Positions 1 through 9,875 of a DNA stretch of 64,000 nt are shown piece by piece. The translations under genes were made by a program, and so were the position numbers. The stretch's first letter is position 1, and every line of letters begins with the position of its first letter. The DNA comes from an uncultured bacterium. GTDB taxonomy: Bacteria; Auribacterota; Erginobacteria; Erginobacterales; CAZKCI01. Under the pieces are notes generated by a model. That model did not search any database. It saw only the letters and a program-made list of their open reading frames with translations, and was not told where the DNA came from. The stretch is taken from the NCBI GenBank assembly GCA_964551475.1, contig CAZKCI010000013.1, forward strand, positions 1,017 to 65,016. Direction: 5' to 3'.

Positions 1-54
1 GAGAGTTTCTCGCCTCAACCCACAACACAGGACCACAAATGGTGTGGGCGATCG

Positions 55-381
55 TTACACCAAGAGTTTGATCGCAAAGTTGACCACCTTGTCTACAGCC
101 TTTGCCGCCGCAGTCGCAATCTTGATTGCCTCGGCAACCTTGTTTAGATCCTTGAATGCGGCTTTAGCAACATTCTCCGCTTCACCTAACGACTGTATGG
201 CGGCCTTATAGTCCAGGGTCGTCTTGTCCAGTTGATCCAAGATGACCTGCTGCCAAAGTATGAACAGCGCATTGATCAGCTTCTGCAAGTCGATCTGTTC
301 CTGCGCCACCGTAGTGTTATTTCGAACCTTGTTGAGGACGTTGACAAGGTCACTAATGCCCGAGCGAATAGTCGTAGCCAT
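55..381 (-). CDS. hypothetical small all-helical protein (108 aa), low-GC island cargo
   Basis: ORF in the approx 50% GC block downstream of the RHS locus; Ala/Lys-rich helical sequence, no recognisable motif. Confidence 0.35.
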   Translation of the reverse strand: MATTIRSGISDLVNVLNKVRNNTTVAQEQIDLQKLINALFILWQQVILDQLDKTTLDYKAAIQSLGEAENVAKAAFKDLNKVAEAIKIATAAAKAVDKVVNFAIKLLV

Positions 382-426
382 AAGCCTCTCTCCTTTCGTC
401 GCGTCGTTATCGTTGCTGACCTAGTT

Positions 427-1386
427 TTACCTCTCCTGGAGGCTCTTGTAGAAGCCTTGCACCGACTTTACATATACTTCGAGTTCACCAATCCGCTTTG
501 CCATCTCCGCCGAGGAGAACTCGTTCGCCTCAATGGCCTCGCGCAAAGCAGAGTGGGCTTTTCCGACTGCGGATGCACCCTTACTAACGGCGGCGAAGAA
601 CGCCGGTGTATTGGCTTCAGCATCATAAAGCTGGCGAGCTCGGAGGAGCATCGAGTAGCGAACATCGAATGTAGAGTTCGGACGTAAACGTTCGATGTTG
701 TATGCCTGCTGGATCGATCCACGGCTGTTACTTATGGCTTCTTTGACAAAGCTAGCGAGTTCCGAGTCCTGGCCGAGGTCCGCCGCGATCAGCGCTGTCG
801 CTTTTTGTACAGCGGGGTCAGCTTTCGTGACCGTTGTTTTGATCGCATCGTGGCGCTTAGCCTCACTAATGACTTTGCCGATCGCATTAACAGCGGTCGC
901 GATGATTCCAATATCAGCGTCAGTGACTGGGAGGTCGTTGCCCGACGCTTTCTTGAAGGTATCTCGCAGGCCGATAAGTGCTCCGTCGAGATCTTTGGCC
1001 GCCGCGTCGATGTCGGTGTCGAAATCAGCCTCCGCCAACTGCTGCAGGGCGATCGAGTAGCTGGATAGCTGATCCAGAACGCGGAGACGAAGGGTTAATC
1101 GTTCGGCCTTTTCCGCTCCATTCTGAGCCCCACTGTCTCCGCTGAAAAGCCCTTTGAAGGTCGCATCCGTTGGCCCTATCTGGGGGTCGCTGGCCACATC
1201 GTAAAGTTTTCGCTCAACGCTCGCGCCAGTGGCTAGATCGAATGCCTTTCGAGCATGCTCACCGAGCGAAGAAGACGCCAATCCGAACTGTTTAACTTGG
1301 GTAAGGGATGTTGACGCACAGCCGACAAGGGCTACGAGTGACATTGCGGCGAGTGATGCTTCGATGACGCGTCTCACGCGTTTCAT
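427..1386 (-). CDS. hypothetical lipoprotein (319 aa)
   Basis: N-terminal signal peptide with lipobox-like LVGC (MKRVRRVIEASLAAMSLVALVGC); helical, no recognised domain. Confidence 0.5.
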   Translation of the reverse strand: MKRVRRVIEASLAAMSLVALVGCASTSLTQVKQFGLASSSLGEHARKAFDLATGASVERKLYDVASDPQIGPTDATFKGLFSGDSGAQNGAEKAERLTLRLRVLDQLSSYSIALQQLAEADFDTDIDAAAKDLDGALIGLRDTFKKASGNDLPVTDADIGIIATAVNAIGKVISEAKRHDAIKTTVTKADPAVQKATALIAADLGQDSELASFVKEAISNSRGSIQQAYNIERLRPNSTFDVRYSMLLRARQLYDAEANTPAFFAAVSKGASAVGKAHSALREAIEANEFSSAEMAKRIGELEVYVKSVQGFYKSLQER

Positions 1387-1620
1387 GGCATCTCCCTTCG
1401 TTAGTTAATAGCGAGCATGACGATCGTTTCATGCCGCATCCGCGCTGTGTGAAATGTATTTGTCTGGGCTCTTGTTTGAGCCTTCTAGCGATTTGCTATG
1501 ACGCGCTGTTTTGTATTCTTGTAGCTAGTGGTCAGTTATCAGCCTCACCTGTAGCATCACTAGATAGTGCATCACAGGATGAAGGCAGCCAAAGTCATAA
1601 ATATCGTTGTTCTATCCGAT

Positions 1621-1953
1621 TTATTTAGCCGTTGGAGACGGTGCGAATAGTCCTACTAAGGCTCCAACTGCCGCTGATCCAAGAGCTACTAAGACTTCGG
1701 GGATAGTCTTGCCTCCAAGCACTAATACTATGGAACCAATGGCCGTCAAAAGAGCAAGCAAGCTGAGCACACCAATTGCTATGCGGTAGAGGTATCTATC
1801 ACCAATATATGCTGGGGTTATTGCCTCTGCCTTAGTCGCTGTATCTTTGAGTATTGAAATGGGATCCTTCTTTAACTTCTCTACTAGCATAGGATCCGCT
1901 GAAAACATTTCTACCATCCGCCCGGCAGAACGCATTTGCATTTCCATCTTCAA
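1621..1953 (-). CDS. small membrane protein (110 aa, two C-terminal TM helices)
   Basis: Hydrophobic segments LLALLTAIGSIVLVLGG and LVALGSAAVGALVGLF; low-GC region. Confidence 0.35.
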   Translation of the reverse strand: MKMEMQMRSAGRMVEMFSADPMLVEKLKKDPISILKDTATKAEAITPAYIGDRYLYRIAIGVLSLLALLTAIGSIVLVLGGKTIPEVLVALGSAAVGALVGLFAPSPTAK

Positions 1954-2156
1954 CCTCCCAGTTATGAAATTGGTTAAGTCTTAAGGTCGGAATAAGGCCC
2001 GGTCGACCGTACCGTCGCTATCGGCAGCCAGAGGGAAGGGGATGTCATCGCTCTGACCGAAGGTCGCGAAGCTTTCCGCCTATATCAGCATCCGCTTTCC
2101 ATAAGCTATAAGATGAAGTATGAGCTAATGGTGAGTTTGTTTACTATGTATAATGA

Positions 2157-3023
2157 TTAATAATAGCCATTCAGTAGAGACGAAAGAGGAATATCCGTCT
2201 GGCTCCCGAACCAACATGTAGTTACCGTTCCTGTGATGGGATTTTGGATATCCCATCGTCCATTCCGGTAAATCGCTCTATTGATTCGCTCCAGATTGGT
2301 ATGAACAGCCGGAACAGGGATGTCATTAGCTTGGCCGAGGTAATAGTAGCTTACTACCCCAGTATATGGCTGTTTTTGTGCCCATGTTCCACTGTCAAAT
2401 GTGGCTAATGACAATCTTTCGAGGTAGAACCAATCTCCTGGAACTGGTGTATCATTATTATCGCCTAAAGAAGAATACGTCACTTCGCCAGTAAGAGGTT
2501 GCCGTAGCGCCCAAGTACCACTATTAAAAACAGCCCCAGTTGCTCTTTCTAAAGCAAAATAATCTCCAGGAACAGGAACGGAATCGCTTGATCCTAAATA
2601 AAACGACGTATAACTTCTGACACTCCATAATCCTGTAGAAGGCCTAAAAACGGCAATTTGTGCCGGCTGCCCAGTTATGTAGTTGGCGGGTACCGGTATA
2701 TCTCCATCTGTACCATAATAAAGAGAAGTGTAGCCCCTTATCCCCCACAAACCTGTAGATGGACGGAAAACCGCAATATCCGTAGCTTCAGATCCATAGT
2801 AATCCTGCGGAACGGGTATATCGCCATCTGCGCCGTAGTACACCCTTGTAATGTCTCTAATCGCCCAAAGGCCGATTGAAGGTCGGAAGACAGCAATATC
2901 CGAGACACCATCATTATTGAAATCTACCGGAGTTGCTTCACAAAGGGAAACGTACTGACTGCTGAACAGATACCCAGCCACCGAGATAAGAAGCCAGTAT
3001 AACATACTGCCCGAAATCTTCAT
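2157..3023 (-). CDS. secreted FG-GAP-like repeat protein (288 aa)
   Basis: Signal peptide; at least 5 tandem repeats of VFRPSTGLWxIR..YYG.DGDIPVPGDY, the same repeat type as in the giant protein at 9882-16373 and in the 60708-61637 protein. Confidence 0.65.
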   Translation of the reverse strand: MKISGSMLYWLLISVAGYLFSSQYVSLCEATPVDFNNDGVSDIAVFRPSIGLWAIRDITRVYYGADGDIPVPQDYYGSEATDIAVFRPSTGLWGIRGYTSLYYGTDGDIPVPANYITGQPAQIAVFRPSTGLWSVRSYTSFYLGSSDSVPVPGDYFALERATGAVFNSGTWALRQPLTGEVTYSSLGDNNDTPVPGDWFYLERLSLATFDSGTWAQKQPYTGVVSYYYLGQANDIPVPAVHTNLERINRAIYRNGRWDIQNPITGTVTTCWFGSQTDIPLSSLLNGYY

Positions 3024-3228
3024 AATCCACTCTCCTTCGTTAGGATTTCAGCAATATTTCCGAAATGAATCAATGAGGGTGCAGCGTAACAGCATTTGAT
3101 CCGACCGGTGATACCACAATCCGGAGTGTTACCCCTTCCTCTTGATTCTTCGGTCTCATCATCTGGTTGTTAGGACAGGTAACAGTCCATTCGGTTCTTT
3201 GCTGATACCTCGGGCCGGCAGTGCTATC

Positions 3229-3702
3229 CTATTCCTTCAAATCCTCGTCCGCATTACTATCATCATTCCAATAATATACAGCGAACTCTCCTAGCTGATA
3301 GCATATATCTTGTTTTCGAAAACGCGCCGGGAATTGCCTGTCTTCACGTAGTGATACCAGGATACCATGTCTCATGCCTTCTCCAAACCATACAGCTTCG
3401 ATATGCTGAAGATTATCGCCAAATATATATATTATCCCATATTCATTGAATCCCAGCATCTCCCAGTCAAATTCAATGCTATCAGTTAGTTTATATCGTC
3501 CAGGAGAGCCATAGCGCTTAAATCTTGAATCTAAATCATGAGCCTTAGTCACGTTATCTCTAATCCATGACAGCAAGTATGTCCTTACCTCTTCTCGCAT
3601 AATGATAACCTTTTTCGACTCACAAAATTGGTTCTTCATCCATCCGAAGCAGCCCATGCTTGTCACCATAAATAGGGTTAGGATAGCAATTATCCTGAAC
3701 AT
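3229..3702 (-). CDS. candidate RHS immunity protein, predicted lipoprotein (157 aa from MFRIIAIL start)
   Basis: Lies 32 nt downstream of the RHS stop on the same strand; perfect AAGGAGG RBS 6 nt before ATG at 3702; N-terminal signal with Cys (LTLFMVTSMGC); low GC like the RHS C-terminal tip. Confidence 0.55.
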   Translation of the reverse strand: MFRIIAILTLFMVTSMGCFGWMKNQFCESKKVIIMREEVRTYLLSWIRDNVTKAHDLDSRFKRYGSPGRYKLTDSIEFDWEMLGFNEYGIIYIFGDNLQHIEAVWFGEGMRHGILVSLREDRQFPARFRKQDICYQLGEFAVYYWNDDSNADEDLKE

Positions 3703-3734
3703 TGTATACCTCCTTGCAAGTTTACACACTACTA

Positions 3735-6700
3735 CTATGGAATATCTTCTTGATACCGTTCGTAAATATCACGACCTGTTTTCGCCCAATCAATCGCTTT
3801 GGGGATTTGCTTAAGATCAGTTAGACTCAAACGTGTAAATGACTGAATCGCATTATATCCATATATCCTTGGCGTATTTCCATAACCTGTCAGTCCGCGA
3901 GCGGAACTTGCAAATCCTTGGAAGTAATAGTTGATATCGGAACCCTTGTAGATCCCAGGCGGCACATAACCAAATTGGTAGTTAATTGAAAATCTAGTAG
4001 AAGCATAATCAAGAAATGTGCCATCGGCAGTCCCATGTAGTTGGATCTGATATTCGATAAATCCCATCGTATCATAACCACGACTTTTCGCCTCGCTAAC
4101 ATCAAGAATCATTATCGACATAAGCTCACTGCGTGTGATCGGAACGGGGTTCCCTTTGCTCTCGCGTTTTTTCTTATTTAGGCTATCCAATGCTTTGTCA
4201 TAGTTATGTTGTATGCATTCCCACTTATCGTGGTTAGACAGATTTTCCCACTCAGCTTCATATTTCTTCCGTTCTCTTGCGTCTCTTCGGTCCTTAAGTC
4301 TATATACAGTTGGACGGCTTCTATCCCAATCAAATCCGGTTCGTTCCTCTGCAACATCCTGTGCGGTTTGTCCTGCTTGTTCGGTCCCCGTTCCCTGTGC
4401 TTGACCCGCTTTCTCACCTTCTTTCTGTCCCGTTTCCGCTTGTTGGGCTTCTGCCTGGACATCGGCAGTGGCCTCTTCGTCAGCGCTCAGACCGAGGGGA
4501 TCGACAAGATTAATGGGATTATTATAGCAATAAACATACCGATTATGCCTATCCGGCTGAAGGGCGTCGACGTATTCCTTGATAAACCGATGAAATGAGG
4601 AGTACACCCCGCTGAAATACGATATCCTCGGATCATCCGGCCCGCCGGTCAGGAAATCAGGGGTCGTGAACCTCCCCGTCTCCGGATCATAGAACCTCGC
4701 CCGGTTGAACTGGAGGCCGATCTCGTCTTCCCACTCCCGGCTCGTGAACTTGTAGTCGTTCCCCGAGGTCCCCGTCTCCAGCGTGATCTTTCCCCAGGCA
4801 TTGTAGACATATGTCCCGACCTGGAACTCGGCGTCGTTTGTCAAGGAGCGGGCGGAGCCGATCGCGTCACAGTGGTAGTATACGCGGTTGCCGGAGGATT
4901 TCCTACTGATAAGCTTGTCGATCCCGATCCCCTGGACATATGTTGCCCAGGGCGTACCGTCCGTGGCGAGGTCCTGAAGGACGTTCAGGCCGTCGAAGAG
5001 ATACCACGTTTCCGCCCCAGCCGAGTTCTTGCTCGCAACCCTCCTCTTGTCCCCGTCGTAAGTGAACTCATTAGAGAGGCTCCCTGGGAGGTTGACCTTC
5101 GTCAGGCGGTTCTCGAAGTCGTATTCGTAGCTCGTCACCGTGCTGCCGTCGACCGTCTTTCCCTGCAGACAACCATTGGCGTCATACGAATACTCGACAA
5201 ACGAGGCCAGATTGGGCTGGTAAGAGATGTCGATCTGATGCTGGGAGACATTGCTCGCTGAATCCCAGGCGGTAGCCGTGAGGGTATTGGTCCCGAAGGT
5301 GAGCTTCACCCCCTGGGCCGTGAAAGTCTGCTGGTTGAGCGAAGCCAGAACGCCGTTGACCGTTACCATTTCGAGATCGCTGTCGGCGACCCAGCCGGTG
5401 ACGTTGATCAGCTTAGTGGGCGTTCCCGTCCCTCCCGAAGACCACGAGATCAGCTGGTTAAGGTCGTTGTAGTTGTAATCCTTGGTAACGCCGTTACAGA
5501 GCTCGTCTTTACGGTTACCAACTGCGTCGTAATAATAACTCACCGCCGGGGAATTAGGATATGAGACGCGGGTCAAACGATATAGATCGTCATAATCGTA
5601 GTGGGTCGTACCCGAAGCTTCGATCATATCCGTCCGATTGCCGACCTTGTCATAGGCATATGAAAACTCCGTTAAGGTGGTGTTTCCGGTTGAATCCGTG
5701 CTCTTCAGGTGGATCAATCGGTTTGCCCCGTCGTAAACGTCGTAATGAGCCACCGCCCCGTTGGGATAGGTCATGCAGGTAAAACGCGATCCGTAATCGT
5801 AGCCGTATCCGGTTTCTCCATCGTCGGGATCGAGGATGCGTTCCAAGCGGTTCAGATCGTCATAGAAATAGCTTGTAACGCCACTATCCGAAACGGTCAT
5901 CGTCTCCCGCTCGCCGTTCGCATAATAGGTATAGGCGACGGCCTTGTTCCCCGCCGGACCGGGAGAGGTCACGGACAGGAGACGGTTGATATCGTCGTAT
6001 GTATAGGAAGTCTCCCCCGTGGAGTCCTCCATCCAGATACGGTTGCCGGAGGAATCGTAGCTATATTCGACCCAGGACGATTCTCCTACGAAGGTCCTGA
6101 GTTTGAGGCGGTTCAGGTAATCGTAACTATATTCGATCTCCTGAGACTTCGCGTCTATTTGGGATATCCGGTTGCCGACGCAGTCATACTCATAGGCGGT
6201 TACTTTTGCGAGTGCATTCTTCGTGCTGATTAGGCGGCTAATATCGTCGTAGAAATACTCGGTTATGTTCCCCTTAGCGTCGGTGGTCTTTACCTTGTTC
6301 CCCAGGAGATCATAATCATAATCGGTGGTATTGTTTTCCCCGTTGATCGGGTCTTCCACTTCGATCAAACGATTGAGTGAGTCGTATTCATAGTAAGTGA
6401 TATTGTTCTCGGCGTCCTCTATAGATGTCCGGTTGCCGTTGTCGTCGTATGTGTATGCAGTTTCAAGGTTGAGCGTTCCGTAGTCCTGTATCTTGCTCGT
6501 CATCTGGTTGAGACCGTTATATACGAAGTGGGTGACATTTCCGTTCGGATCGATCTCGGATACCTTGTTGCCTGACCCGTCGTAATCGGCATGGGAAACG
6601 ATGCTCGATATGGCGTAATGCGTCTCGGTGAGCAGGTTGCGGCCGTTATAGCTGAATGCCGTCCAGTTAGCGTTCTTGTCCCTTTCCGCGACCTTATTCA

Positions 6701-9700
6701 TCCCATCGTATAGGGCATAAGCCTCCCCATTTTCGGCGTCGGTCGTCTTGGTCAAGCGGTTAAAGGCGTCATATTCGTAGTATGTATCGTGACCGTTTTT
6801 GTCGCGTTCTCTGTATTTATTCCCGCTCGCGTCATACCAATACTCGACATATGCCGTATACGGGTCAGTCACCTTCTTGAGGCGGTTGTCCTTGTCGTAC
6901 TCGAAATAGGTTCGATTGTTGTTGGCGTCCTCTTCCCAGAGCTTGTTCCCCACGGGGTCGTAGTAATACTCCTTCTCGCAGCTCTTGGGATCGGTGACCT
7001 TCTCCAGACGATAGAGCAAATCATACGAGTATTGGGTAGTCAGATATTCTTCTTCACCTCGATAAGACTTGTTAAACTGGACCATGCTTGTATAGCGGTC
7101 TCTCGAGCGGTCGTATTGATGGGTACCTCCGTTGGTGGATGAATCCCCGTCTCCTCCATAATGGTACACGGTAACTTTGTTCTCCGGATCTATCTGCCTT
7201 TTGAGGCGATTCAATGCGTCATGAGTGAACGTGGTCGTGTTCCCATTGAAATCCGTTTCGGAGTTCTTATTATCCTCTTTGTCGTAACCATAATGCTTGG
7301 AGCGTTCCTCCGTGAGGCCGAGGGCTTCCGTTACCGTAATCAAGCGATCATAACCATCATAGCCATATTGGGTGATTACCCCTCTCGGATTGACCATGCC
7401 AGTCCGGTTCCCTACGGTGTCGTAATAATAGGTTGCGGGATATTCCGCCGCACCGTCGTGGACAGTCTCGCCCGTGAGGCGGTTCATCACGTCATAGGAA
7501 TATTCGGTCAGGTTGCCATTGAAGTCGGTTTCTGATAGCTTATTACCGAAGCAATCGTAGGTGAATGTCTTATCAAAATATACTGAGGGATTATCCGTAT
7601 ACTTCCTGATCCTACTTAAGAATCCCCAATCGTTGTCATACTCAAATTCGGTGATTTTGCCGCGGGGATCCTCCGTCTTGATCCGTTGTCCATACTGGTT
7701 ATACCAATGCTTTGTCTCATTCCCCTCGGCATCGATTTCCTTCCAGAGCACCCCGTCGGAACCATAACCTGCGGGAGACCCATTGGCGACATAGTAGTTC
7801 CATTTCGTATGATTGTTGAAATCGGCGGAGGTGAGAACTTGATTGAACATCGTCTCATAAGTAAAAGTCGACTCGTAGGCCTCACCTGCCGGATCGGCGA
7901 TTTTCCGGACGAGGTTCCCCATCTCGTCGTAATCCATGCTATGCACAAGGTTATTGGTATCCGTCGTCTTGGTCAGATTAAAGTAATATTCGTCGAACTC
8001 ATAATAAGTAGGTTCACTATAAGGATCGTCGATCCGGGTGATCAAAGTGCGTTCCATTCGTCCATTCGGCGCGTCCAATCTGAGTTCAGTAAGATACTTG
8101 GTTAGCGTATTGCCATTCGAATCGGTGACCAGGACATTCGGATGCAGGCCGTCTTTCGGATTGCTCAGCCAATAATATGTGCATTCGCGGGATGGTGGCT
8201 CGTTGACACCATCCTTCCAAATACGCGCGCAAGAATAGGTGGGGCTACTATATTCGAAATTGATTGTATTCTCTCTTGCGTCAATGACTTTCGACAAGAG
8301 ATGGCGGCTGATTTTTATTGGTCTGGCGCGAAACACGGCAGGAGGCTGATACATCTCCGGGGGATAATATTCGAAATATGTCGTCTGGTTCTCGGGGTTG
8401 GTTATGCTGGTCAGGTTGCTCTCGTCGTTGTATCCCAACGCAAAGGTCCGAGTTTGATCCCCGTATTTGACGGCTATCGCCGATATCCTGTCCCCATCGT
8501 AGGTCAGCTCAACCCTTCTTCCCACGTTGTCCTGCACGGCCGAAAGGCAGTTCTTGTCGGAGATGGTAGTATAGTAGTAGGAATTCGTGTTCCCATAACG
8601 GTCTCTGGCGGCGAGTATCCGGCCGTCAGAGCCGGATCCGGAATCGAATATGTAGGTCCTGCCGTCTTTGAACGTGACGGTGCTCGTATCCCAGCTGAAA
8701 TCGGTATTGATATCGACATGGAGGGAATTGGAAGCGGGCTCGTAGTAATCTTCCAGGATGAAAAATCCGTCCCCTTCCCCATCGATCAGCGTTGCTCCAT
8801 CTCTTGACTGGTACTGCATTCCGTTGAAGTTGCCGTAATACTCTTGGGATTCCAGAAGCTCCGTCAGATAGCTATCGGCCTCTGTGATGAGCGGGTCGAG
8901 ATCTTTAATCAGTATATCGAGGTCATCCCAATCACCCTGAAGCTCGCCGATAATCCCCGGTGTCTCGGATATTTGTCTATCAAGATCGTAGACATCAGTT
9001 TCCAACTTCACGCGATCATCGTTCAGCTTGCGGACCTCTGATATGATATCGGCTAACTCGCCGACATAGATGAAGCCTTCATTACCGCCTAGCGACTGAT
9101 ATATCGCCCAATCCTCATCCGGCATGTAACAATCCGGAAAATTCTCCCATCCGTCGCGCTCGCAGTTCGGCTTCGCCCAAAGTTCATCCCATTGGAATTC
9201 CAAGCCTTCCAGTTCCTGCTGCTGTGCTTCGGCGCCCGGGATAGTATCATTTACGAGGGTGTCCAGACTTTCTTGCAGCTTCGACAAATCGTCTGGGCCA
9301 GTATCATAGCAAAATTCTTTAAGAGCTGTGATTTGTTCGTCAATCACCCCCTGCGAGGTCTCTAGCGCAGTTTTGTCGCCGTTCAAATCCGATAGGGACT
9401 GCTCGGCGCCGGTGATGAGGCCGGCGATATCCCCATTTATGTCCCCGAAGTTCTCATCGGGTGGGTCGGAGAGCAAATCGCCGGGCTGCACTTCTTCCCA
9501 GTCCCCGGGATCTTCCACGATATAGAACGTCTTTACCTCCAGACGCTTCTCCAGGGAGAGCGACCAGCAGGCCTTGCCAAGAAGATGGGGGGCGTCGGAG
9601 TTCTTGCTGTTATAGGTGAGCGATATCGCCAGAGGCAACCCTCTCTGGTTGGGCAAGGTCATCAGGTGATGGTAAAGATAGAGATTCCCATTGGTTTCAT

Positions 9701-9875
9701 TCACCTGGTAGCGAGTAACGGCATTGGAATCGAACCTAGGCTCGCCCATATCCTTGCGGTAGGTCTGGTCCGGGGTGGCAACTTCCTGGGCGCACAGAGG
9801 CGAAAGAGCGAACGAAGCGGACGTCCCGACCGCGATTAACCAAGGCAGGATTCTGGATGTAAAACCGAGCTTCAT
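3735..9875 (-). CDS. RHS/YD-repeat polymorphic toxin (2046 aa) with Sec signal peptide, SpvB-like N-terminal motif, YD repeats, RHS core (RFYDPETGRF ... NPINLVDPLGL) and unrecognised 250-aa C-terminal toxin domain (nt 3738-4485)
   Basis: Many YDxxGN(R/L) repeats; canonical RHS C-terminal core and DPxGL boundary; GC drops sharply 3' of the DPLGL codons; N-terminus NGNLYLYHHLMTLPNQRGLPLAISLTYNS..WSLSL resembles the SpvB/TcB N-terminal motif. Confidence 0.9.
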   Translation of the reverse strand: MKLGFTSRILPWLIAVGTSASFALSPLCAQEVATPDQTYRKDMGEPRFDSNAVTRYQVNETNGNLYLYHHLMTLPNQRGLPLAISLTYNSKNSDAPHLLGKACWSLSLEKRLEVKTFYIVEDPGDWEEVQPGDLLSDPPDENFGDINGDIAGLITGAEQSLSDLNGDKTALETSQGVIDEQITALKEFCYDTGPDDLSKLQESLDTLVNDTIPGAEAQQQELEGLEFQWDELWAKPNCERDGWENFPDCYMPDEDWAIYQSLGGNEGFIYVGELADIISEVRKLNDDRVKLETDVYDLDRQISETPGIIGELQGDWDDLDILIKDLDPLITEADSYLTELLESQEYYGNFNGMQYQSRDGATLIDGEGDGFFILEDYYEPASNSLHVDINTDFSWDTSTVTFKDGRTYIFDSGSGSDGRILAARDRYGNTNSYYYTTISDKNCLSAVQDNVGRRVELTYDGDRISAIAVKYGDQTRTFALGYNDESNLTSITNPENQTTYFEYYPPEMYQPPAVFRARPIKISRHLLSKVIDARENTINFEYSSPTYSCARIWKDGVNEPPSRECTYYWLSNPKDGLHPNVLVTDSNGNTLTKYLTELRLDAPNGRMERTLITRIDDPYSEPTYYEFDEYYFNLTKTTDTNNLVHSMDYDEMGNLVRKIADPAGEAYESTFTYETMFNQVLTSADFNNHTKWNYYVANGSPAGYGSDGVLWKEIDAEGNETKHWYNQYGQRIKTEDPRGKITEFEYDNDWGFLSRIRKYTDNPSVYFDKTFTYDCFGNKLSETDFNGNLTEYSYDVMNRLTGETVHDGAAEYPATYYYDTVGNRTGMVNPRGVITQYGYDGYDRLITVTEALGLTEERSKHYGYDKEDNKNSETDFNGNTTTFTHDALNRLKRQIDPENKVTVYHYGGDGDSSTNGGTHQYDRSRDRYTSMVQFNKSYRGEEEYLTTQYSYDLLYRLEKVTDPKSCEKEYYYDPVGNKLWEEDANNNRTYFEYDKDNRLKKVTDPYTAYVEYWYDASGNKYRERDKNGHDTYYEYDAFNRLTKTTDAENGEAYALYDGMNKVAERDKNANWTAFSYNGRNLLTETHYAISSIVSHADYDGSGNKVSEIDPNGNVTHFVYNGLNQMTSKIQDYGTLNLETAYTYDDNGNRTSIEDAENNITYYEYDSLNRLIEVEDPINGENNTTDYDYDLLGNKVKTTDAKGNITEYFYDDISRLISTKNALAKVTAYEYDCVGNRISQIDAKSQEIEYSYDYLNRLKLRTFVGESSWVEYSYDSSGNRIWMEDSTGETSYTYDDINRLLSVTSPGPAGNKAVAYTYYANGERETMTVSDSGVTSYFYDDLNRLERILDPDDGETGYGYDYGSRFTCMTYPNGAVAHYDVYDGANRLIHLKSTDSTGNTTLTEFSYAYDKVGNRTDMIEASGTTHYDYDDLYRLTRVSYPNSPAVSYYYDAVGNRKDELCNGVTKDYNYNDLNQLISWSSGGTGTPTKLINVTGWVADSDLEMVTVNGVLASLNQQTFTAQGVKLTFGTNTLTATAWDSASNVSQHQIDISYQPNLASFVEYSYDANGCLQGKTVDGSTVTSYEYDFENRLTKVNLPGSLSNEFTYDGDKRRVASKNSAGAETWYLFDGLNVLQDLATDGTPWATYVQGIGIDKLISRKSSGNRVYYHCDAIGSARSLTNDAEFQVGTYVYNAWGKITLETGTSGNDYKFTSREWEDEIGLQFNRARFYDPETGRFTTPDFLTGGPDDPRISYFSGVYSSFHRFIKEYVDALQPDRHNRYVYCYNNPINLVDPLGLSADEEATADVQAEAQQAETGQKEGEKAGQAQGTGTEQAGQTAQDVAEERTGFDWDRSRPTVYRLKDRRDARERKKYEAEWENLSNHDKWECIQHNYDKALDSLNKKKRESKGNPVPITRSELMSIMILDVSEAKSRGYDTMGFIEYQIQLHGTADGTFLDYASTRFSINYQFGYVPPGIYKGSDINYYFQGFASSARGLTGYGNTPRIYGYNAIQSFTRLSLTDLKQIPKAIDWAKTGRDIYERYQEDIP

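Follow-up and report, generated by a model that had tools for sequence, protein, structure and literature searches.

The window examined here, a 64,000-nucleotide stretch of contig CAZKCI010000013.1 from an uncultured bacterium, encodes on its minus strand a 2,046-aa RHS protein with a rare C-terminal tip, followed by a small open reading frame (ORF) for an exported protein of 157 aa. With its repeat shell, its core-end motif, the exchange of its tip, and its partner gene downstream, the RHS protein belongs to the class of RHS polymorphic toxins. We consider it probable that the two genes constitute a toxin-antidote module in which payload and antidote represent undescribed families and the payload acts in the periplasm or envelope. 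The type of system is well known; what is new are the families of payload and antidote, neither of which has a solved structural relative. New RHS tips are common, but the present one is unusually well defined, rare, and confidently modeled. A preliminary description of the same DNA had proposed an unrecognized RHS tip family with a lipoprotein immunity partner on an exchanged cassette of low G+C content (GC), and this interpretation is supported by the present analysis.

The RHS protein contains 16 RHS-repeat stretches (Pfam; E = 6.6e-66), a recorded TEN_YD-shell match, a Glucodextran_B-like Ig insert (residues 1488 to 1552), and, as read from the sequence, a Sec-type N-terminal signal peptide (MKLGFTSRILPWLIAVGTSASFALSPLCA/QE). 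Its core terminates with YCYNNPINLVDPLGL, the final residue of which is 1796. The motif NPINLVDPLGL, which had been named before as the end of the core, was located there (PINLVDPLGL, residues 1787 to 1796); the codon of its last Leu, formerly placed at 4486 to 4488, occupies positions 4488 to 4490. The gene closes with a TAG stop codon at 3735 to 3737. RHS shells cut off their tips after a PxxxxDPxGL motif, and given this established behavior of RHS and TcC proteins, the tip is probably released by self-cleavage after DPLGL. The tail behind residue 1796 comprises 250 aa, the first part of which is indeed a low-complexity stretch of Q, A, E, and G, as had been noted; its characterization as Lys-rich was not borne out, with a Lys content of 6.4% versus 4.1% in the core and only two short K/R patches.

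The exchanged cassette starts well downstream of the cleavage motif. In locus L016, the sister RHS protein P0038, a close relative in the core, continues through the linker to GFDWDKTRPTV and then changes to an unrelated tip; common core and linker with another tip directly document cassette exchange. L016 and the window are 71% identical over 834 nt of DNA and about 80% identical within the linker, and their homology ends at position 4306, after GFDWDRSRPTV and about 182 nt (about 61 codons) past DPLGL. The GC step coincides with this point: the linker (4307 to 4487) has a GC of 56.4% and the last 600 nt of the core one of 56.3%, compared with 41.3% from 4306 to the stop codon. For orientation, the values are 51.7% for the whole RHS core, 40.1% for the 157-aa ORF, and 64.5% for the window past 17 kb. 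Because the homology to L016 ends and the GC changes at the same position, 4306, the exchanged unit consists of residues 1857 to 2046 plus the downstream ORF, and the linker is part of the portion of the gene that stays constant, outside the cassette. The fall in GC and the exchange postulated in the preliminary description are accordingly real, but the step does not lead from about 60% to about 45%, and neither it nor the junction lies at the end of the core. The point at which RHS tips recombine can hence lie well past the DPxGL cleavage motif, and tips that are delimited by this motif alone contain common linker sequence. The tip of P0038, which is encoded at positions 24 to 2909 of L016, comprises about 145 aa after RPTV (PKLSEIQAEREQ...FRLPLPFK), and no same-strand gene was called directly downstream of it. 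A gene for a GspD-type secretin is located near P0038 in L016, which shows this organism to be diderm.

The toxin domain proper accounts for about 160 of the 250 tail residues. No match of the tip was found in Pfam (E ≤ 1), NCBIfam, PHROGs, PADLOC, or the PDB sequences, in a word-indexed search of 5.8 billion proteins, or by tblastn against plasmid and phage collections, and a literature search with the signature peptide strings retrieved no papers. An HExxH motif is absent from the 250-aa tail, in agreement with the former statement that a recognizable payload motif is missing. An exhaustive phmmer search of 1.84 billion cluster representatives returned 38 proteins at E ≤ 1e-3 (best value, 4e-15), and 35 tip relatives were left after dropping the repeat artefacts P0017 and P0033 and the linker-only protein P0038. 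Comparison of 32 family members with Pfam yielded nothing but noise matches of single members (best E, 0.013), and the tip-family profile had no match among the PDB sequences; a known toxin family was thus detected neither for the tip nor for these 32 proteins. Most relatives are extreme C termini of long proteins (up to 3,500 aa) or follow the end of an RHS core and a Gly-rich pre-toxin region. The long relatives that were scanned have signal peptide, SpvB, FG-GAP, PA14, Ig, RHS, and DUF637 domains and no PAAR domain. At least one tip locus is present in 185,579 species genomes, namely in a metagenome-assembled genome (MAG) of the Oceanospirillales, and at least 11 in JGI metagenomes; both counts are lower bounds from a scan that started from a 6-sequence alignment and was limited to [SGA]DINYY[YF]Q. 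Judged from these sequences, the tip family is real and rare. When the short relatives P0031, P0039, and P0020 and the proteins P0006, P0008, P0011, and P0037 were considered together, two types of relatives were seen. Several relatives are short proteins that start within the Gly-rich pre-toxin motif (MAYAFNQ...), as orphan tip cassettes would, whereas separate relatives of about 390 aa combine the tip with a low-complexity, Lys-rich N terminus, lack RHS and any Pfam match, and may use a different delivery route.

Residues N1982, Y1983, G1987, and N2008 do not vary in the 32-sequence alignment A1, and G2034 is shared by all 30 members that are not gapped there; D1951 is conserved in 31, Q2023 in 28, and D1980 in 27 of the 32 members. 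The same alignment contains no conserved Cys, His, Ser, or Glu, and the known catalytic sets (Cys/His, Ser/His/Asp, HExxH, HKD, and catalytic Glu) are absent from the family. An AlphaFold2 model of the tip, built on a 32-row alignment (predicted local distance difference test [pLDDT], 92.1; predicted template modeling score [pTM], 0.84), is largely helical with one small hairpin. The model is confident and has no structural neighbor in the PDB, so that the predicted fold is new, a novelty that holds for the PDB only. The tip is hydrophilic (grand average of hydropathy, -0.84), its highest 19-residue hydropathy of 0.81 (1.36 across the family) remains under the need of a membrane helix, and hydropathy revealed no hydrophobic helical hairpin. 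A pore-forming or membrane-inserting toxin, either colicin-type or Tse5-CT-like, is unlikely, since the hydropathy is too low and the partner is modeled as a soluble alpha/beta domain.

The partner gene was correctly described before with respect to its distance from the RHS gene, its perfect Shine-Dalgarno sequence, and the length of its product (Table 1). The 157-aa protein, the ATG of which is located at 3700 to 3702, begins with MFRIIAILTLFMVTSMGC, and its signal peptide and lipobox-like Cys were likewise recovered. Cys18 (codon 3649 to 3651) stands in the context T-S-M-G-C, which is a relaxed lipobox only and misses the strict pattern [LVI][ASTVI][GAS]C; it fits the pattern of PROSITE PS00013 type. 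Two further Cys are present at positions 27 and 134. A lipobox occurs in 9 of 11 downstream ORFs examined, six of them strict and three, including the TSMGC of the window, relaxed. The remaining two have an ordinary signal peptide and an N-terminal hydrophobic segment, respectively, the latter of which may fix the protein in the membrane or act as a signal anchor. Since a second Cys a few residues past the lipobox Cys and a Cys near the C terminus recur among the homologues, the pair suggests a disulfide and an oxidizing compartment. The protein belongs to no known family (it is absent from Pfam, NCBIfam, and the PDB) and to no fold known from the PDB; a model built on a 5-row alignment predicts a soluble alpha/beta domain behind the signal peptide and has no match to BamE. 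Two alternative starts are annotated: 157 aa in NCBI and Logan and 166 aa in JGI/IMG, where a GTG at 3729 adds nine codons (3229 to 3729). The strong Shine-Dalgarno sequence belongs to the ATG at 3702, and an N-terminal signal sequence results with either start.

The pairing of tip and lipoprotein gene is conserved. In the word-indexed search, the 157-aa ORF matched itself alone and the immunity alignment matched four clusters. An iterated search from the 157-aa protein against all 557 ORFs of the fetched loci (database size fixed at one million) detected L002 (4e-8), L004 (2e-4), and L014 (2e-3) in the first pass and, upon iteration, L002, L004, L007, L008, L009, L010/11, L012, and L014/15 at 1e-30 to 1e-50. 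In all these loci, the homologous ORF lies immediately 3' of the tip homologue on the same strand, and no immunity homologue was found elsewhere in the fetched loci. The downstream ORF is therefore retained beside homologous tips in at least eight independent loci. This result and the missing match of the tip to a known toxin family concern the two points on which the preliminary description had made its own interpretation depend, and neither speaks against it. In the metagenomic protein P0014 (L002, positions 4001 to 7342), tip and lipoprotein immunity gene are united in one ORF with no stop codon in between, and the fused part resembles the 157-aa protein with a pairwise BLASTP E value of 1e-14. 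Because P0014 retains a Met within the ORF, with a canonical LAAC lipobox behind it, its immunity protein may nevertheless be made separately. In L004 (positions 61 to 890 of the Oceanospirillales MAG contig QIKT01000073.1), a frameshifted tip fragment precedes an intact immunity homologue, behind which lies an ORF resembling the N terminus of a transposase, an arrangement reminiscent of an orphan immunity gene retained after decay of its toxin.

Based on these observations, the following course of events can be envisaged. The RHS protein would be exported by Sec, and its shell would enclose the C-terminal 250 residues and probably cut them off after DPLGL. The payload, a soluble, hydrophilic, mainly helical domain about 160 aa long, has several polar residues that are fixed (D1951, D1980, N1982, Y1983, Q1986, N2008, Q2011, and Q2023). 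The exported 157-aa partner would reside in the periplasm, both in the producer and in its kin, and neutralize the payload there, presumably by binding. The periplasm or envelope of diderm targets is ranked first as the site of the predicted toxicity because the tip pairs with an exported partner that in most loci is predicted to be lipidated, as is the case for extracytoplasmic effectors; the envelope-acting toxin of the preliminary description was a reasonable proposal, still an inferred one, which is reinforced by the conserved lipoboxes. That polar residues are conserved and hydrophobic segments are missing argues for an enzyme or a tight ligand binder that acts on an envelope substrate. 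Our best guess, suggested by residue types and compartment alone, is peptidoglycan or one of its lipid-linked precursors, a different glycan, or a phospho-head group. More tentatively, the tip might be the first representative of an unprecedented fold and of an unprecedented enzymatic class of antibacterial envelope toxins, in which an Asp/Asn/Tyr/Asn/Gln pocket attacks a periplasmic substrate in a way that no known effector does, and the lipoprotein might represent a new immunity fold. Toxins that kill in the periplasm reveal reachable weak points of the Gram-negative envelope, where new antibacterial targets are most wanted. The present pair offers a modeled domain of about 160 aa, invariant residues to mutate, and a specific candidate inhibitor in the form of the lipoprotein, all of which is testable in Escherichia coli.

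Several observations weigh against such a periplasmic toxin-antidote pair. The lipobox of the window ORF is noncanonical (S-M-G-C), and a C-terminal Cys is missing at the family position, Cys134 being located ten residues earlier. The lipoproteins downstream of the tips in L003/L005 and L013 are similar in size and weakly similar in sequence. Among the conserved residues, D1980 is substituted in 5 of 32 members, and the invariant Asn, Tyr, Gly, and Asp form no recognizable catalytic set, so that no activity can be assigned. Finally, a delivery system was not found, with no PAAR or VgrG domain in the RHS protein according to Pfam and no type VI secretion system (T6SS) genes among the 22 neighboring ORFs scanned.

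The missing catalytic set also bears on a rather unlikely competitor, namely a tip that is not catalytic at all and acts in the periplasm by sequestering a precursor, blocking an envelope machine, or perturbing the membrane surface. The lack of conserved Cys, His, Ser, and Glu in A1, the mainly helical fold of the AlphaFold2 model, and the exported lipoprotein partner are all compatible with such a mode of action, but invariant polar residues of buried type such as N1982, Y1983, N2008, and D1951 are more usual in active sites. The domain is moreover hydrophilic and has no amphipathic or hydrophobic hairpin, and pore formers are usually countered by integral membrane proteins, which the 157-aa protein is not. 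It is improbable that the target is cytoplasmic and that the lipoprotein catches the toxin during its passage through the periplasm or serves another role. Several relatives do possess Gly-rich pre-toxin regions (GGKFxNGA; DUF637), which are often tied to membrane translocation, but the RHS protein of the window lacks such a region. In addition, cytoplasm-acting toxins of RHS and contact-dependent inhibition systems normally have cytoplasmic immunity proteins, whereas a signal peptide with a lipobox is a conserved trait of the present immunity family. There is very little reason to assume an anti-eukaryotic, Tc-like effector of BC type with the lipoprotein as an accessory factor rather than an immunity protein. 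The relatives P0010 and P0035 combine SpvB, FG-GAP, and RHS, like TcB-TcC fusions, and the absence of T6SS genes nearby would fit, but no TcA-like gene adjoins the RHS gene. A small gene that travels and diverges with the tip in at least eight loci is a hallmark of immunity, and the intact lipoprotein gene beside the frameshifted tip fragment of L004 points in the same direction.

The Lipocone superfamily (TelC, CapCone, ClaspCone, and prok-SAA), whose members are lipid head-group phosphoesterases, comprises helical toxin tips whose immunity proteins are periplasmic lipoproteins or are anchored in the membrane (PMC12419801). With respect to context, namely, a helical polymorphic-toxin tip with predicted periplasmic action and a lipoprotein immunity, TelC-TipC and other Lipocone pairs are the nearest functional analogy to the pair of the window (PMC12419801). 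The idea that the tip is a very divergent member of this superfamily is hardly credible, however. In hhalign, A1 reached probabilities of 0.1% against CapCone-1, 0.3% against ClaspCone-2, and 0.1% against prok-SAA, compared with 92% for the control pair ClaspCone-2 and prok-SAA, and the signature strings of the tip are missing from the 2.75 Mb of family sequences of PMC12419801. The ancestral pocket of His (H2), Glu (H3), and Asp (H4) (PMC12419801) has no counterpart in A1, where other residues are conserved; the tip model bears no structural likeness to the solved members (TelC, SAA, and Wnt), and on the immunity side the model is unmatched to BamE. On account of the hhalign values and the missing triad, Lipocone membership was rejected, and the likeness lies in the context without common descent.

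The YD shell, the PxxxxDPxGL motif, the exchanged tip, and the immunity gene downstream on a low-GC cassette are shared with RHS/YD-repeat systems such as Rhs-CT with RhsI, WapA, and TcB-TcC-like proteins. The window differs from them by tip and immunity families without an entry in Pfam, NCBIfam, or the PDB, by a Sec signal peptide in place of PAAR or VgrG, by a junction 61 codons past DPxGL with a linker common to different tips, and by an immunity candidate that is a predicted lipoprotein. The T6SS pairs Tae/Tai, Tge/Tgi, Tle/Tli, and Tlde1/Tldi1 consist of periplasm-acting effectors with lipoprotein or periplasmic immunity proteins; here too, the place where the immunity protein resides allows the compartment of effector action to be predicted. 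These effectors have recognizable amidase, muramidase, lipase, and transpeptidase motifs and are delivered by the T6SS, whereas the tip of the window shows neither such catalytic motifs nor T6SS delivery. Lipoprotein immunity is represented by a single family, Imm65, in the polymorphic-toxin survey of 2012 (PMC3482391).

Table 1. Coordinates of the toxin module and the adjacent surface protein gene in the window
Feature	Position	Strand	Details and basis
Candidate cognate immunity gene, 157 aa; signal peptide, residues 1-17	3229..3702	-	Sequence and homologues
32-nt spacer with Shine-Dalgarno sequence AAGGAGG (3709-3715), 6 nt before ATG	3703..3734	-	Sequence
RHS/YD-repeat polymorphic toxin gene	3735..9875	-	2046 aa; Pfam RHS_repeat and signal peptide
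Exchanged tip cassette, residues 1857-2046: charged helix, then toxin domain	3738..4306	-	End of L016 homology; 41.3% GC
Toxin domain, about residues 1890-2042	3750..4208	-	Family alignment; signature G-[SGA]-D-I-N-Y-Y-x-Q-G
Q/A/E/G-rich linker and GFDWDRSRPTV, residues 1797-1856	4307..4487	-	About 80% nt identity to L016; 56.4% GC
End-of-core motif PINLVDPLGL, residues 1787-1796	4488..4517	-	Sequence and coordinates; PxxxxDPxGL form
Secreted surface protein gene, 2163 aa	9882..16373	-	Beta-helix, FG-GAP-like repeats, TSP3, four lamin-tail domains, TIG

With respect to the neighborhood, the gene of the 2163-aa surface protein, the RHS gene, and the 157-aa ORF are closely packed on the minus strand. 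The first of them ends 6 nt before the RHS start codon, and because of this short gap, both probably belong to one operon. A gene for a secreted 288-aa protein (2157 to 3023, minus strand) that consists of repeats of the type DFNNDGVSDIAVFRPSxGLWxIRxxTxxYxGxxGDIPVP is located 205 nt downstream of the immunity ORF, and akin FG-GAP/VCBS-like repeats are also found midway in the 2163-aa protein. Further downstream on the same strand (427 to 1386), a 319-aa protein with the canonical lipobox LVALVGC and no family match is encoded. The first 17,900 nt of the window have a lower GC (49% for positions 1 to 3228, 51.7% for the RHS core, and 57% for the 2163-aa gene, compared with 64.5% past 17 kb); no tRNA gene is present in the window to mark an island. 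A short ORF of the phage integrase family (17224 to 17817, 197 aa) is located at the edge of the low-GC region and adjoins a ComEC-like gene whose Pfam match begins at profile position 71. The low-GC left end has the appearance of a genomic island whose insertion site was in comEC or close to it.

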